Sequence record: OM386658.1
DNA: 64,000 bases
Reading direction: 5' to 3' (one strand)
DNA from: Escherichia phage vB_EcoM_ESCO32
Shown here: positions 8,713 to 11,460 of the stretch, piece by piece
Layout of the letters: each line of letters opens with the position of its first letter
Position numbering within the stretch: the first letter of the stretch is position 1
Notes under the pieces: generated by a model
Told to the model about the DNA's origin: nothing
Databases searched by the model: none
The model's input: the letters and a program-made list of their open reading frames with translations, nothing else
Translations under genes and position numbers: made by a program

Positions 8713-8789
8713 TGGTCGTGGTAAACGGAGTCGAACTGTTGTTTCTCGATTATCGGTCGAGTGTACTAACCATCTGTACGATACCACAA
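8713..8789 (-). tRNA. tRNA-Ile(GAT)-like
   Basis: Manual fold: acceptor TGTGGTA/TACCACG, anticodon stem CTCGA/TCGAG with loop CCGATAA (C33 unusual), T-loop TTCGACT, encoded CCA. Confidence 0.4.
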
Positions 8790-8793
8790 TAAT

Positions 8794-8870
8794 TGGCAGC
8801 AAGGTGAGGAATCGAACCCCCTGATCTATGGTTTGGAGCCATATTGAGTACCATACTCTTTTAAATCTAC
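8794..8870 (-). tRNA. tRNA-like gene, possibly Trp(CCA); boundaries approximate
   Basis: T-arm GGGGG-TTCGATT-CCTCA and encoded CCA at 3' end; hairpin TATGG-CTCCAAA-CCATA gives anticodon CCA; acceptor stem could not be paired cleanly by hand. Confidence 0.3.
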
Positions 8871-8934
8871 CCGGCTATGAGTTCCTTGAAGTGTCAATGT
8901 AATTTAATCATTACACCAGAAGGGAGGTATTTAT

Positions 8935-9013
8935 TGGAGGCGGGAATCGGATTTGAACCGATGATCTCCAGCATATGAAACTGGCGAGGACGACCAGACT
9001 CCTCTATCCCGCA
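8935..9013 (-). tRNA. tRNA-Met/Ile2/fMet (CAT)
   Basis: Anticodon arm CCAGT-TTCATAT-GCTGG, T-arm ATCGG-TTCAAAT-CCGAT, acceptor 3' TCCCGCC-T-CCA; 1-72 mismatch. Confidence 0.5.
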
Positions 9014-9028
9014 CAATCTGTAATAATT

Positions 9029-9113
9029 TGGTAGCTAAGGTGAGACTCGAACTCACAATCCCTTGGGGCAATACGTTCTAAGCGTATCGTGTATACCATT
9101 CCACCACTTAGCC
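9029..9113 (-). tRNA. tRNA-Leu(TAG), type II
   Basis: Acceptor GGCTAAG/CTTAGCT, anticodon arm ATACG-CTTAGAA-CGTAT, long variable arm, T-arm GTGAG-TTCGAGT-CTCAC, CCA. Confidence 0.6.
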
Positions 9114-9190
9114 ATAATAAGTGCACCACTGTAAGAAGCCTCAATGTGCTATTGACAGTTAACCAAGTCTACTCCTTGGATGGTGTTATT

Positions 9191-9265
9191 TGGTGCAGAG
9201 AGATGGTAACGATCCATCCTTTCTACCTTTTCAGGGTAGCACTAATCCGTCTCAGCTATCTCTGC
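9191..9265 (-). tRNA. tRNA-Phe(GAA) with non-canonical T-loop
   Basis: Acceptor GCAGAGA/TCTCTGC, anticodon arm CTACC-CTGAAAA-GGTAG, T-arm GATGG-ATCGTTA-CCATC (loop lacks TTC), CCA. Confidence 0.5.
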
Positions 9266-9270
9266 AAATT

Positions 9271-9346
9271 TGGTCAGTGCGGCAGGACTCGAACCTGCGA
9301 CCCGAAGCATCCAAAGCTCCCACGCTACCAACTGCGCTACGCACTG
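9271..9346 (-). tRNA. tRNA-Pro(TGG)
   Basis: Acceptor CAGTGCG/CGCACTG, D-arm GCGC-AGTTGGTA, anticodon arm GGAGC-TTTGGAT-GCTTC, T-arm GCAGG-TTCGAGT-CCTGC, CCA. Confidence 0.65.
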
Positions 9347-9353
9347 TAAATAT

Positions 9354-9428
9354 TGGCTGGAGATCTAGGAATCGAACCTAGTCATCACGACTTCAAAGGC
9401 CGTTGCCTTCCCACTAGGCTAATCTCCA
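9354..9428 (-). tRNA. tRNA-Gln(TTG)
   Basis: Acceptor TGGAGAT/ATCTCCA, anticodon arm ACGGC-CTTTGAA-GTCGT, T-arm CTAGG-TTCGATT-CCTAG, CCA. Confidence 0.6.
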
Positions 9429-9526
9429 ATAAGACTAAAATCACTTAAAAAGAACCGCTAGAGTTTGAAGGAGAAAACCATGAGCGAAAAGAGAAATTTT
9501 CTCTAGCGATTCCATTTAAATAATCT

Positions 9527-9601
9527 TGGAGCGAGTAACAGGACTTGAACCTGCACCTGGAGGGTGGAAACCTCATATGCTACCATTAACACTATACCCG
9601 C
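9527..9601 (-). tRNA. tRNA-Gly(TCC)
   Basis: Acceptor GCGGGTA/TACTCGC, anticodon loop TTTCCAC, T-arm GCAGG-TTCAAGT-CCTGT, CCA. Confidence 0.55.
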
Positions 9602-9656
9602 TTAACAATATTACTCTAACATATTATTAGCCCCTTTGTCAAGAGGCTTTTAATAT

Positions 9657-9980
9657 TTATTTTAAAATAGTAGATGCACCACGTCTATTTAGATATGCAA
9701 CCGTAAAGCTCAAATCACCTATTTCTTCAGGTTCCCACTGACCTTCTAAGCCATAACAAGAACAATGATATGCGTGTACTTCATAAAACAAAGATGTTTT
9801 CATATCATAGAAATAAACGTGAGATTCGCCTTCATAATATGCACAATCATAAGTGGCAGAAAGAATTACAATGTTATCCTTATCTAACTCTACTTCATAA
9901 TATCTTTCAACATCTTCAATATCATCAAAACCATCGAAAACATTGATATTAAAATATTTCTCTAACTCTTTTTCTGTCAC
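9657..9980 (-). CDS. hypothetical protein (Cys/Tyr-rich)
   Basis: ORF track; N-terminus trimmed to GTG after AAAGGAG because longer ORF overlaps tRNA-Thr. Confidence 0.35.
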   Translation of the reverse strand: MTEKELEKYFNINVFDGFDDIEDVERYYEVELDKDNIVILSATYDCAYYEGESHVYFYDMKTSLFYEVHAYHCSCYGLEGQWEPEEIGDLSFTVAYLNRRGASTILK

Positions 9981-10002
9981 ATACACTCCTTTAGAGTTAA
10001 AT

Positions 10003-10076
10003 TGGTGCTCCCACAAGGACTCGAACCCTGATAAGTTGCTTACAAGGCAACCGTAATAGCCGTTATACGATAGGAG
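10003..10076 (-). tRNA. tRNA-Thr(TGT)
   Basis: Acceptor GCTCCTA/TGGGAGC, anticodon arm GTTGC-CTTGTAA-GCAAC, T-arm CAGGG-TTCGAGT-CCTTG, CCA. Confidence 0.6.
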
Positions 10077-10156
10077 CAAAATATTTGCTTGGTAGGATTT
10101 GATACCTACAATTCTAGAAAATTCTAGAGGTTTCTATTAACTCTACAAGCACTATT

Positions 10157-10241
10157 TGGCGATGGATCAAGGATTTGAACCTTGCTAGAACTTTCGTTCA
10201 CGGATTAACAGTCCGTCGCCCAACCACTAGGCCAATCCATC
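10157..10241 (-). tRNA. tRNA-Asn(GTT)-like with extra long variable arm (atypical)
   Basis: Anticodon arm ACGGA-CTGTTAA-TCCGT (Asn-like), then GAAC-GAAA-GTTC extra hairpin, T-arm CAAGG-TTCAAAT-CCTTG, acceptor GATGGAT/ATCCATC, CCA. Confidence 0.4.
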
Positions 10242-10248
10242 TTTAATT

Positions 10249-10335
10249 TGGTGCAGGTAGTTGGACTCGAACCAACGAAGCCCCGAAGGGCAGGAGATTT
10301 ACAGTCTCCAGCAATTGCCGCTATGCGATACCTAC
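10249..10335 (-). tRNA. tRNA-Tyr(GTA), type II
   Basis: Acceptor GTAGGTA/TACCTGC, anticodon arm GGAGA-CTGTAAA-TCTCC, long variable arm, T-arm GTTGG-TTCGAGT-CCAAC, CCA. Confidence 0.6.
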
Positions 10336-10340
10336 GTGTT

Positions 10341-10416
10341 TGGTACATCGTGAAGGATTCGAACCTTCGACCTTGGAGTTAAAAGCCCCTTGCTCTACCA
10401 ACTAAGCTAACGATGT
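10341..10416 (-). tRNA. tRNA-Lys(TTT)
   Basis: Acceptor ACATCGT/ACGATGT, D-arm GCTT-AGTTGGTA-GAGC, anticodon loop CTTTTAA, T-arm GAAGG-TTCGAAT-CCTTC, CCA. Confidence 0.65.
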
Positions 10417-10586
10417 ATAAATTATCTTTAAAATAGCCAGTGTTCGCACCACTGACTATGAGGTATCGGTAAGATGGTGGGGGCCATCTGCCGAAAGTCT
10501 ACTCTATTAAAGTAAGATGGTTGCAGCCATCCTTCCAAAAAGTTACACCAAGCAACTAAGAGTAACAAGCTACATTAAAGATAACT

Positions 10587-10672
10587 TGGCGGTAGATGTA
10601 GGACTTGAACCTACACGCCGTTTCCGACGACAGTTTAGCAAACTGTTGTGGCTACCATTTCACCAATCTACC
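10587..10672 (-). tRNA. tRNA-Ser(GCT), type II
   Basis: Acceptor GGTAGAT/ATCTACC, anticodon arm ACAGT-TTGCTAA-ACTGT, long variable arm, T-arm GTAGG-TTCAAGT-CCTAC, CCA. Confidence 0.6.
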
Positions 10673-10680
10673 GTTCTTAA

Positions 10681-10833
10681 TTATTCAAAACAACCGGAAT
10701 CTTTTTGTTCTGTTTTTACCATACGAATATTCTTACCATCTTCAGATTGTTGAAGATTAGAATACTCATAAACAACTTTATTATTTACAATCTTAACTCC
10801 GGTAACAACCTGTCCAATAGTTTTATAATTCAT
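10681..10833 (-). CDS. hypothetical small protein (about 50 aa)
   Basis: ORF track trimmed to internal ATG (MNYKTIGQ...) preceded by AGGAGC; sits between tRNA genes. Confidence 0.3.
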   Translation of the reverse strand: MNYKTIGQVVTGVKIVNNKVVYEYSNLQQSEDGKNIRMVKTEQKDSGCFE

Positions 10834-10851
10834 AAAGCTCCTAAGAGAATT

Positions 10852-10941
10852 TGGAGGAAGATAATGGAGTCGAACCATCACCGTATCGCTACAATGGGCC
10901 AGGGTTCAAACCTGGTTGCGCACCGCTGCGCCCTACCTTCC
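10852..10941 (-). tRNA. tRNA-Ser(TGA), type II
   Basis: Acceptor GGAAGGT/ATCTTCC, anticodon arm CCAGG-TTTGAAC-CCTGG, long variable arm, T-arm GATGG-TTCGACT-CCATT, CCA. Confidence 0.55.
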
Positions 10942-11004
10942 TGTTACCATACTTTAAATCTAACATAAAACTATCTTGCTTGTCAAGTAGTTTTTAAAAC
11001 TTTT

Positions 11005-11086
11005 TGGCCGGGGTGACAGGATTCGAACCTGCATACTCCAATTACTCGGTTAACGCCTGATTAGAAGTCAGGTGAGATACACCCCG
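11005..11086 (-). tRNA. tRNA-Arg(TCT)-like element with atypical architecture
   Basis: Acceptor CGGGGTG/CACCCCG, anticodon arm CCTGA-CTTCTAA-TCAGG, T-arm GCAGG-TTCGAAT-CCTGT, CCA; but only 5 nt where the D-arm should be and a 23-nt segment between anticodon and T arms. Confidence 0.35.
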
Positions 11087-11267
11087 TTTTCATAATGACT
11101 ATAACAAAAAACTAAGTAAATGTCAAGATATTTTTTACTAAAATTACTATTTAAATTGAAGCCTAGTTATGGAATCGAACCATATTTCGTATTTAGTTAG
11201 ACAAAGCGGTCTAACATATTTTTCAGGCTTTGATGGCCTCGGAATTACCAAATACCCTACTAGGTGT

Positions 11268-11353
11268 TGGTGCAAGTGGAGGGATTCGAACCCTCAAGCA
11301 TTTAAGCGTTGCGTTTTAAGCACAATGTGTATCACCAATTCCACCACACTTGC
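11268..11353 (-). tRNA. tRNA-Leu(TAA), type II
   Basis: Acceptor GCAAGTG/CACTTGC, anticodon arm TTGTG-CTTAAAA-CGCAA, long variable arm, T-arm GAGGG-TTCGAAT-CCCTC, CCA. Confidence 0.6.
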
Positions 11354-11384
11354 ATATAGGAGATGCATAGCACCTCCTTTTAAA

Positions 11385-11460
11385 TGGTGGTTCCCCAGGG
11401 TTACAATCCCTGCCCTCGACACTTATGAGGTGTGCGCTCTCGTCAGTGAGCTATGGAACC
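11385..11460 (-). tRNA. tRNA (CAT anticodon; Met or Ile2) with non-canonical T-loop
   Basis: Acceptor GGTTCCA/GGGAACC, D-arm GCTC-ACTGACGA-GAGC, anticodon loop CTCATAA, T-arm CAGGG-ATTGTAA-CCCTG (no TTC), CCA. Confidence 0.45.

Follow-up and report, generated by a model that had tools for sequence, protein, structure and literature searches.

How many working tRNAs does the array at positions 8713-11460 of Escherichia phage vB_EcoM_ESCO32 encode, and what do they do for the phage? The array lies on the minus strand of a 64,000-nucleotide (nt) stretch of sequence record OM386658.1, hereafter the window, and a preliminary description had folded about 17 tRNA genes there by hand. tRNAs were called with ARAGORN over the whole 64 kb, at its default setting and at a 95% threshold, and with the Rfam tRNA model RF00005 at its gathering threshold of 29 bits. 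Default ARAGORN returned 15 genes, all on the minus strand within 8713-11460 and none elsewhere in the 64 kb; across the same 64 kb the 95% run added only a Trp-like element (8794-8871, anticodon CCA). The RF00005 gathering score was reached by 14 elements, namely 13 of the ARAGORN genes and an Arg-like element, with the same identities as the manual folds. The limits of the manual reading proved exact and all 17 of its calls were recovered with their identities: 13 by both programs, Ser(TGA) and a second CAT tRNA by ARAGORN alone, the Arg-like element by Rfam alone and the Trp-like element at the relaxed threshold. The 13 standard genes score 47.3-68.9 bits over the full RF00005 model, above the gathering threshold, with a full cloverleaf, and every tRNA of the array encodes its 3′ CCA. 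The array is therefore made up of 15 solid tRNA genes and two doubtful or tRNA-derived elements, all on one strand. It had also been called tightly packed. Five spacers are indeed only 5-7 nt long (Ile-Trp, Phe-Pro, Pro-Gln, Asn-Tyr and Tyr-Lys), but since the longest reaches 401 nt and tRNA makes up only 49% of the array span, this wording fits sub-clusters and not the array as a whole.

A rival account would hold that these cloverleaves are chance or artefactual folds in a region that truly codes for protein on the plus strand, where eight open reading frames (ORFs) of 51-100 amino acids (aa) cross the array. None of these ORFs, taken from a minimum of 50 aa, has a PHROG match and all overlap tRNAs, as expected if they are artefacts, which is how the preliminary description had seen them; the same tRNAs are, moreover, annotated in relatives. 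ARAGORN made no call at either threshold on 300 dinucleotide-preserving shuffles of 8713-11460, against 13 elements scoring 47-69 bits with RF00005 in the real sequence. The covariance-model scores and the shuffle control thus refute the artefact account, to which we attach a negligible probability.

Over its full length the array region is 98.7% identical to that of Escherichia phage inny and 95-99% identical to about 250 other records, phi92 among them (genus Justusliebigvirus, subfamily Stephanstirmvirinae). These 15 tRNAs are annotated, in unchanged order, in the records of both inny and phi92, and a 2025 paper on the close relative BME3 gives the same tRNA set with one extra Met copy (PMC12210895). 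The clusters of phi92, inny, BME3 and ESCO8/9 share their genes, gene order and flanks (spanin and terminase at one end and, at the other, nicotinamide phosphoribosyltransferase (NAMPT)) in DNA that is 96-99% identical, whilst phi92 carries a 330-nt insert between Gln and Gly that is absent from the window. The array is thus not new: phi92, inny and dozens of relatives have it in their annotation, and it has appeared in print. It is an ordinary phage tRNA cluster of a phi92-like (Justusliebigvirus) lytic coliphage, with several tRNA genes on one strand that are kept in relatives. The tRNA regions of T4 and T5 are likewise one-strand clusters with interspersed small ORFs in large lytic coliphages, but with other gene sets and sequences. 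Neither the Arg-like nor the Trp-like element is among the 15-16 tRNAs of the published and annotated lists (phi92, inny, BME3 and relatives). Furthermore, the phi92 record marks Phe and Ser(TGA) as pseudo and labels the second CAT a 'hypothetical tRNA'.

Non-canonical tRNAs in the array

The Arg-like element (11005-11086, minus strand; Rfam match 11008-11086 at 38.6 bits, anticodon TCT) has a 7-base-pair (bp) acceptor stem, the segment UAUCUCA in place of a D-arm, an anticodon arm with the loop CUUCUAA, a 23-nt insert (CGUUAACCGAGUAAUUGGAGUAU), a T-arm, G73 and an encoded CCA. In the Rfam alignment 4 nt stand at the model's 15-nt D-arm and 20 extra nt follow the anticodon arm in the variable region. 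There is no D helix in its minimum-free-energy fold, and ARAGORN left it uncalled at every threshold tried. Because it lacks the D-arm of RF00005, we file it as a tRNA-like, non-canonical gene.

BLAST found the element in 198 further phage records at 80-90% identity, almost never annotated. Carriers include Felix O1, the 383-kb Asteriusvirus BF17, the T5 relative Sugarland and Mydovirus KNP2 (loci L006 1501-1584, L007 1001-1087, L008 1001-1082 and L009 1001-1082), and at least five lineages are represented (Justusliebigvirus, Felix O1-like, Asteriusvirus jumbo, Sugarlandvirus and Mydovirus), together with many uncultured phage contigs. Among 16 distinct sequences 97.6% of alignment cells are paired and 10 of the 12 acceptor and anticodon pairs have changed on both sides; none of 500 shuffles reached these values and no slid register came near them. 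A second scan, anchored on the 5′ half only, recovered about 35 distinct true members from IMG/VR, in which the T-stems covary too and the insert reads C[G/A]UUAA[Y/A][C/U]GAGUAAN[U/C]GGAGUAU. Since that scan used the 5′ half alone, the invariance of the insert is not an artefact of the search pattern. Those changes that do occur in it (G-U to G-C, C-G to U-G) preserve a 3-4-bp mini-stem, and we propose a putative pairing, UA(U)CUC/GAGUA, between the invariant segments. The anticodon is always UCU, with CCU once, and the genes of enterobacterial phages encode CCA. A covariance model built on the family gives its members more than 100 bits and ordinary tRNAs at most 37 bits.

Around the element in about 25 further phage arrays, the largest with 26 tRNAs, ARAGORN called no standard Arg(UCU) in the stretches examined, many of which are only part of a contig. 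In the close relatives FKP3 (a Klebsiella phage), nepoznato and WPEC2 a standard Arg(UCU) occupies the slot of the Arg-like element. A scan for the insert in 185,579 species genomes gave 11 matches, of which two are real, both on metagenome-assembled contigs; in the other nine the rest of the element is missing, at about the chance rate for 17 specified bases. The element is likely to be a working, structurally rewired AGA decoder, since it covaries, occurs in at least five lineages and usually has no standard Arg(UCU) called nearby. No description of a D-arm-less phage tRNA was found in the literature searched, the coverage of which is incomplete.

Metazoan mitochondria have a tRNA-Ser(AGY/AGN) without a D-arm, likewise a reader of AGN codons with normal acceptor, anticodon and T arms. 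It is not homologous to the phage element, however. It has a short replacement loop before the anticodon arm, where the phage gene has its 23-nt insert, with a D-loop-like UGGAG motif and a mini-hairpin, after it; unlike the mitochondrial tRNA, the phage Arg-like tRNA would need bacterial EF-Tu, ribosomes and arginyl-tRNA synthetase (ArgRS). One uncultured phage contig (L032) holds the CCU form (12999-13080) and, about 270 nt downstream after a small ORF, a divergent UCU copy (13348-13429) whose insert, AGAAAGCUAAUUGGAUAGAACAU, resembles a D-loop that has moved 3′ of the anticodon arm; a scan for relatives of this copy gave chance matches only. In Felix O1 (L006 1554-1946) and Sugarland (L008 1091-1600) an HNH homing-endonuclease gene starts within the Arg-like element or 9 nt after it, and homing could help to explain the spread of the element between phage families.

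The tRNA-Asn(GTT) gene (10157-10241, minus strand, 85 nt; ARAGORN and Rfam, 56.5 bits) departs from the standard in another way. It has an extra hairpin in the variable region (GAAC-GAAA-GUUC), a D-stem that is 3 bp long in this phage, and G73, and the 16-nt core of its anticodon stem-loop, CGGACUGUUAAUCCGU, is identical to that of E. coli asnT. Relatives retain the hairpin with other stems, as GAGA/UCUC in FKP3 and as GUUC/GAAC in Phapecoctavirus. In IMG/VR, 32 long-arm Asn loci (L062-L090 among them) were found by a pattern scan, on contigs of about 5-310 kb, many of them of about 110-175 kb, a typical T5-like or T4-like size, and a few above 240 kb. In an alignment of 19 sequences all four variable-stem pairs change on both sides, with 91% of cells paired. 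Leu, Ser and Tyr tRNAs (class II) share a base-paired variable arm with the phage Asn tRNA but differ from it in anticodon arm and position 73. It is not derived from any of them, given its Asn-type anticodon arm and G73 and the asnT-like D-arm of the long-arm Asn tRNAs of some other phages. An origin as a paralogue of Ser(GCU) through C35U, open to charging by seryl-tRNA synthetase, was considered and is excluded by the asnT core, by that D-arm and by the fact that only the hairpin of about 10 nt differs. From its sequence, then, this is a class I Asn tRNA with a 4-bp hairpin, capped by a GNRA-type loop (GAAA), in the variable loop, and it appears in many phage lineages; the literature searched, again with incomplete coverage, gave no description of a long-variable-arm Asn tRNA. 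Similar GAAA-capped hairpins are found in the 89-nt Glu(TTC) of FKP3 (L003 3617-3705) and in Trp(CCA) tRNAs of 86-87 nt on three uncultured phage contigs (L032, L069 and L084). The hairpin looks like a recurrent, phage-specific embellishment of tRNAs.

Other members are unusual in their bodies. Ser(TGA) (10852-10941, minus strand, called by ARAGORN) has a tRNA-Sec-like body with a long D-stem. It scores 35.3 bits against the tRNA-Sec model, below its gathering threshold of 47, with eight acceptor positions paired. Alignment to tRNA-Sec gives an acceptor/T-stem of 8/4, whereas ARAGORN draws it as 7/5 and includes a G-U pair; the homologue in nepoznato seems to be of the 7/5 kind. tRNA-Ser of the 8/4 kind has been reported in phage tRNA clusters (Mukai et al., PMC5389517), and, like these 8/4 tRNA-Ser and allo-tRNAs, Ser(TGA) would combine an 8-bp acceptor and a short T-stem with a long D-stem and a long variable arm, although the 7/5 reading is equally possible and the score is below the tRNA-Sec threshold. 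The second CAT tRNA (11385-11460, minus strand, called by ARAGORN) is of elongator type (G1-C72, C11-G24), with a non-standard T-loop (AUUGUAA) and no GG in the D-loop. It matched none of the Rfam tRNA models even at E<=10. Its sequence is invariant and confined to Justusliebigvirus. It shares 68% identity with ileX and with metU alike and could be either Met or Ile2. Over the second CAT tRNA, two GenBank records of 'Campylobacter phage A150 / C3' (MG065639.1 and MG065656.1, 146 kb) match the window with 100% identity; their host label is probably wrong, as this tRNA is otherwise confined to E. coli Justusliebigvirus. Phe(GAA) (9191-9265, minus strand; ARAGORN and Rfam, 49.2 bits) has the non-standard T-loop AUCGUUA. 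Lastly, the Trp-like element on the minus strand, which at Rfam scores 22.4 bits to tRNA-Sec, has a perfect anticodon arm and an acceptor with three G-U pairs and two mismatches, compared with six of seven pairs in FKP3, and would be either a decaying or a marginal tRNA.

Codon supply, defence evasion and rival readings

The preliminary description had proposed setting the anticodons against host codon usage. We compared 67 ORFs of the window (15,047 codons; GC content 37%) with 54 ORFs from one 50-kb region of E. coli K-12 (GC content 51%). The phage/host ratio of relative synonymous codon usage is higher for the Watson-Crick cognate codons of the phage tRNAs than for the remaining codons (Mann-Whitney p ~0.02). 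Moreover, the A-ending codons of tRNAs with U at position 34 (U34) are phage-enriched without exception (10/10, 1.3-2.9x): CUA by 2.9x, ACA by 2.8x, AGA by 2.3x (the third most enriched cognate codon), AUA and AAA by 1.9x, UUA and CCA by 1.8x, GGA by 1.6x, and CAA and UCA by 1.3x. There are nine or ten U34 tRNAs in the array, for CUA, ACA, AGA, UUA, CCA, GGA, AAA, CAA and UCA, with AUA possibly read by a CAU tRNA. The main job of the array would thus be to provide decoders for codons that the phage uses far more than its GC-richer host.

A second job may be to insure the phage against defences by which the host depletes individual tRNA species, through the phage's own tRNA-Lys(TTT) (10341-10416, minus strand; ARAGORN and Rfam, 68.9 bits) and tRNA-Tyr(GTA) (10249-10335, minus strand; ARAGORN and Rfam, 48.1 bits). 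That these two are targets of tRNA-directed defences, as had been pointed out, agrees with published work. The PARIS effector AriB cuts host tRNA-Lys at 40/41, recognising the anticodon stem-loop, and T5 tRNA-Lys neutralises PARIS (PMC11464382). Expression of the retron-Eco7 PtuAB depletes host tRNA-Tyr, and the tRNA-Tyr of T5 or SP15 rescues infection; PrrC targets tRNA-Lys, and a phage tRNA-Lys in trans rescues T1 and T7 from PrrC170 (PMC11555353). The same two anticodons that counter PARIS and retron-Eco7 in T5 are encoded here, Lys UUU and Tyr GUA matching the targeted host tRNAs, whilst the anti-defence role itself we infer by analogy. Compared with the host tRNA-Lys given in PMC11464382, the phage Lys gene has the same loop (CUUUUAA) and an anticodon stem, AGGGG/CUCCA against GUUGA/UCAAU, in which all five pairs differ, 40/41 included. 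The anticodon loops of Gly, Gln, Leu(TAG) and the first CAT tRNA differ from the host's at positions 32, 37 or 38. In phi92 tRNA-Lys (L002 3675-3750) U replaces G at position 31, which opens the loop-closing pair, and ARAGORN assigns no anticodon; strains may differ here at a position that matters for nucleases of the anticodon stem.

One could turn this order round and make defence evasion the primary function, the array replacing host tRNAs destroyed by nucleases (PARIS, PrrC/RloC, retron-Eco7 PtuAB, Schlafen-type tRNases, colicin-like toxins) and the odd architectures being escape variants. The tRNA-Lys and tRNA-Tyr of T5 act in exactly this way, and changes in the anticodon loop or stem of phage tRNAs have been proposed as escape mutations (PMC10264068). 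The wholly unlike Lys stem and the altered Gly, Gln, Leu(TAG) and first CAT loops would fit, as would the RNA-repair cassette close by and the finding of the odd Asn and Arg forms in phage sequence, the Arg-like form in bacterial genomes amounting to those two metagenome-assembled contigs. The anticodon set, however, follows the enrichment of A-ending codons, which defence alone does not predict, and the loops of Lys, Tyr and Asn are unchanged from the host's. A nuclease that a hairpin in the variable arm or a missing D-arm would keep from recognising its tRNA is not known. A primarily defensive array is therefore possible, but we doubt it.

The second alternative concerns the non-standard members, in that the Arg-like, Trp-like and second CAT genes, and possibly Phe, may be pseudogenes or processing signals, or may serve host enzymes as decoys or sponges. 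It draws on the failure of ARAGORN to call the first of these and of Rfam to call the other two, on the pseudo labels and omissions of the phi92 record, on the degradation of the Trp-like acceptor relative to FKP3, and on the clear tRNA relics in the array (11160-11265, 10084-10152 and 9114-9190). For the Arg-like element, which might yet act as a decoy or in processing, decay is difficult to reconcile with compensatory changes that hold all three stems over about 35 distinct sequences, with 7-nt and 23-nt unpaired segments that are near-invariant around a UCU anticodon (CCU once), or with the CCA encoded in enterobacterial phages and a promoter of its own; nor would a dead gene usually be the only AGA decoder called in the stretches examined, in arrays of up to 26 tRNAs. 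We consider this alternative unlikely, and somewhat more so than the defensive one.

We regard it as highly probable that the array is a phi92-like tRNA cluster with codon supply as its main job and insurance against defences as a proposed second one, its UCU element being most likely the decoder of AGA. Several observations weigh against this interpretation. The C-ending cognates of the tRNAs with G at position 34 (Ile, Phe, Asn, Tyr and Ser GCU) stand at 0.27-0.98x and only their U-ending wobble partners are enriched; codon supply is thus supported, though not for every member, since these tRNAs fit only by wobble. The host sample is one 50-kb region and not the whole genome. The second CAT, Phe and Trp-like genes, whose elbows or acceptor stems depart from the standard, may work weakly or not at all, and no convincing intrinsic terminator bounding the transcription units proposed below was found. 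Moreover, Lys, Tyr, Asn, Thr and Arg have anticodon loops that do not differ from those of the host, and loop-specific nucleases (PrrC, colicin E5) probably cut these phage loops too. Because such enzymes probably still cut it, the repair cassette would matter for the phage Lys tRNA; the ligase, kinase and phosphatase encoded nearby could reseal tRNAs cut in the anticodon loop.

Beyond codon supply and insurance, a wider proposition can be put forward tentatively, and at slightly less than even confidence: that the Arg-like genes form a phage-restricted family of working, D-arm-less tRNA-Arg(UCU/CCU), in which the invariant heptamer UAUCUCA links the acceptor and anticodon stems and the near-invariant 23-nt insert (CRUUAAYCGAGUAANUGGAGUAU), with its mini-hairpin and D-loop-like UGGAG, takes over the structural and ArgRS-identity roles of the D-arm, and that, together with the GAAA hairpins of phage Asn, Trp and Glu tRNAs, they represent a routine use of non-standard tRNAs by phages on the ribosomes of bacteria. 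Such tRNAs would possibly escape host tRNA-directed nucleases.

Remaining tRNAs, spacers and transcription

The remaining standard members, all on the minus strand and called by both ARAGORN and Rfam, are Ile(GAT) (8713-8788, 51.7 bits), a first CAT tRNA (8935-9013, 47.3 bits), Leu(TAG) (9029-9113, 58 bits), Pro(TGG) (9271-9346, 62.2 bits), Gln(TTG) (9354-9428, 61.4 bits), Gly(TCC) (9527-9601, 55.1 bits), Thr(TGT) (10003-10077, 56.6 bits), Ser(GCT) (10587-10672, 54.2 bits) and Leu(TAA) (11268-11353, 56.1 bits). The first CAT tRNA is initiator-like. Its 1x72 position is always mismatched (UxC here, CxU in inny and phi92, AxC in nepoznato and WPEC2, CxC in FKP3), it has A11:U24, and its T-loop region, GGUUCAAAUCC, is the same as that of E. 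coli metZ and hence fMet-like. Its anticodon stem, CCAGU/GCUGG around the loop UUCAUAU, keeps only G30-C40. As the three G-C pairs of the initiator (29-31:39-41) are missing, we do not file it as an initiator.

Three spacers, 11160-11265, 10084-10152 and 9114-9190, are tRNA relics. The first of these (minus strand, 106 nt) combines an acceptor-like stem and an internal hairpin of 7 bp with a T-arm that reads TTCGATT, and UCA may stand in an 'anticodon' loop; it cannot be called as a tRNA and has no match in Rfam. Of 257 related records only about 30 have it, and the gap between Ser(TGA) and Leu(TAA) is about 126 nt shorter in phi92, which suggests its absence there; we therefore treat it as an optional element, a presence/absence polymorphism, that the window carries. 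The spacer 10084-10152 (minus strand, z = -2.7) has an acceptor-like stem and a T-arm-like hairpin but no usable anticodon loop. ARAGORN in its intron mode reads 11160-11265 as 'Asn with an 18-nt intron' and in its mitochondrial mode reads 10084-10152 as 'Arg tct'; both were treated as over-fitting of tRNA relics.

Two further minus-strand spacers are conserved, structured and unlike tRNAs; two stable RNAs other than tRNAs are also known from the tRNA cluster of T4. The first, 10418-10516, lies between Ser(GCT) and Lys and has three hairpins (z = -3.8). It keeps 93% identity in WPEC2 and 82% in nepoznato, compensatory changes included, and the stem is fully re-written in FKP3. UUUU comes after the 10-bp stem of its last hairpin, and a role in weak termination or in processing is thus possible. 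The second, 9429-9526 between Gly and Gln, forms a long hairpin around the invariant CUCAUGGUUUUCUCCUUC (z = -4.1), with compensatory stem changes in FKP3. No family was found for the structured spacers in an Rfam search at E<=1 over 8000-12500. On the plus strand, CUCAUGGUUUUCUCCUUC reads as AAGGAG, 7 nt and an ATG that opens a tiny ORF, MSEKRNFL, whose frame is not kept in WPEC2, and phi92 has a doubtful 'rIII' ORF annotated at the counterpart of 9429-9526. Outside the array, the 111 nt between tRNA-Ile and the next gene (8602-8712, minus strand) are 86-88% conserved in FKP3, nepoznato and WPEC2; they include a T-arm-like hairpin, and their overall fold is no better than that of shuffles (z = 0.25). 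The true start of that next gene is the ATG at 8601, not the GTG at 8655.

Three small minus-strand genes belong to the region. An 88-aa gene at 11468-11734 (phrog_15056, function not assigned; inny_84 / Phi92_gp110) ends 7 nt ahead of the first tRNA, with which it is probably co-transcribed. Two more lie inside the array and had been overlooked: 10681-10833 (50 aa, AGGAG ribosome-binding site, phrog_22441 at E=3.5e-39; inny_85 / Phi92_gp111) and 9657-9980 (107 aa, GTG start after AAGGAG, phrog_8792 at E=1.4e-43; inny_86 / Phi92_gp112).

Four sigma-70-like promoter matches on the minus strand have a perfect TTGACA and a TG-extended -10 (10-11 of 12 positions), and three of them each head a sub-cluster, ending 12-16 nt before the 5′ end of a tRNA. 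The best of the region, at 11098-11126 (TTGACA-17-TATAGT, 11/12), ends 12 nt before the Arg-like tRNA. The others are at 11764-11793 (TTGACA-18-TAAGAT, 10/12), upstream of ORF 11468-11734 and the first tRNAs; at 10957-10986 (TTGACA-18-TAGATT), 16 nt before Ser(TGA); and at 9613-9642 (TTGACA-18-TAGAGT), 12 nt before Gly. A candidate over the 5′ end of the Trp-like element (TTGACA 8897-8892, TAGATT 8869-8864) was rejected, as its spacer is 22 nt and the scan did not report it. We infer that host RNA polymerase would make a few polycistronic precursors, which would also carry the two or three small genes and the structured spacers, and that host RNase P and 3′ exonucleases would release the tRNAs, by analogy with the tRNA operons of E. 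coli and T4.

Flanking genes, RNA repair and implications

Below the array lie genes for the major head protein, portal, large terminase and an Rz-like spanin, and above it those for NAMPT and a phosphoribosyl pyrophosphate synthetase; both flanks agree with the placement between lysis/packaging genes and a NAD+ module given in the preliminary description. The RNA-repair cassette that it had placed nearby was found on the plus strand 6.4 kb from the array, at 16918-19700, associated with the array and not part of it. The cassette encodes a cyclic-phosphate-processing receiver-domain (cREC_REC) protein (16918-17292), an ORF without an assigned function (17448-17810), a metallophosphoesterase (17810-18361; phrog_547 at E=8.5e-55, Pfam Metallophos_2 at 20.6, below the cut-off of 27), a T4 Rnl1-type RNA ligase (18363-19295; PF09511 at 53 bits against a cut-off of 28.3, phrog_562 at E=9e-68) and a P-loop polynucleotide-kinase-like protein (19296-19700; AAA_33 at 39.8 bits, phrog_505 polynucleotide kinase at E=6e-9). 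The phosphoesterase, ligase and kinase genes adjoin one another, so that a 5′-kinase, a 2′,3′-phosphoesterase and an Rnl1-family ligase are encoded together as in T4-type repair. A sequence search of the PDB gave no match for the ligase or the kinase and, for the phosphoesterase, a single match to an uncharacterised Aquifex protein. T4 pairs its own tRNAs with repair by Pnkp and Rnl1 against PrrC. There Pnkp is a fused protein, whereas end-healing and sealing are here split into separate cREC_REC, phosphoesterase, ligase and kinase genes.

Phages of the phi92 type are used in phage therapy and in host-range collections, and the Lys and Tyr tRNAs together with the repair genes predict resistance to defences of the PARIS, PrrC and retron-Eco7 types. 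Standard annotation, moreover, misses a conserved candidate AGA decoder and leaves the extra arm of the Asn tRNA unflagged. If they are charged and used, these tRNAs would show that the aminoacyl-tRNA synthetases, EF-Tu and ribosomes of bacteria tolerate a wider range of structures than is now known, and the Arg-like and long-arm Asn tRNAs could then be natural scaffolds for the design of orthogonal tRNAs.

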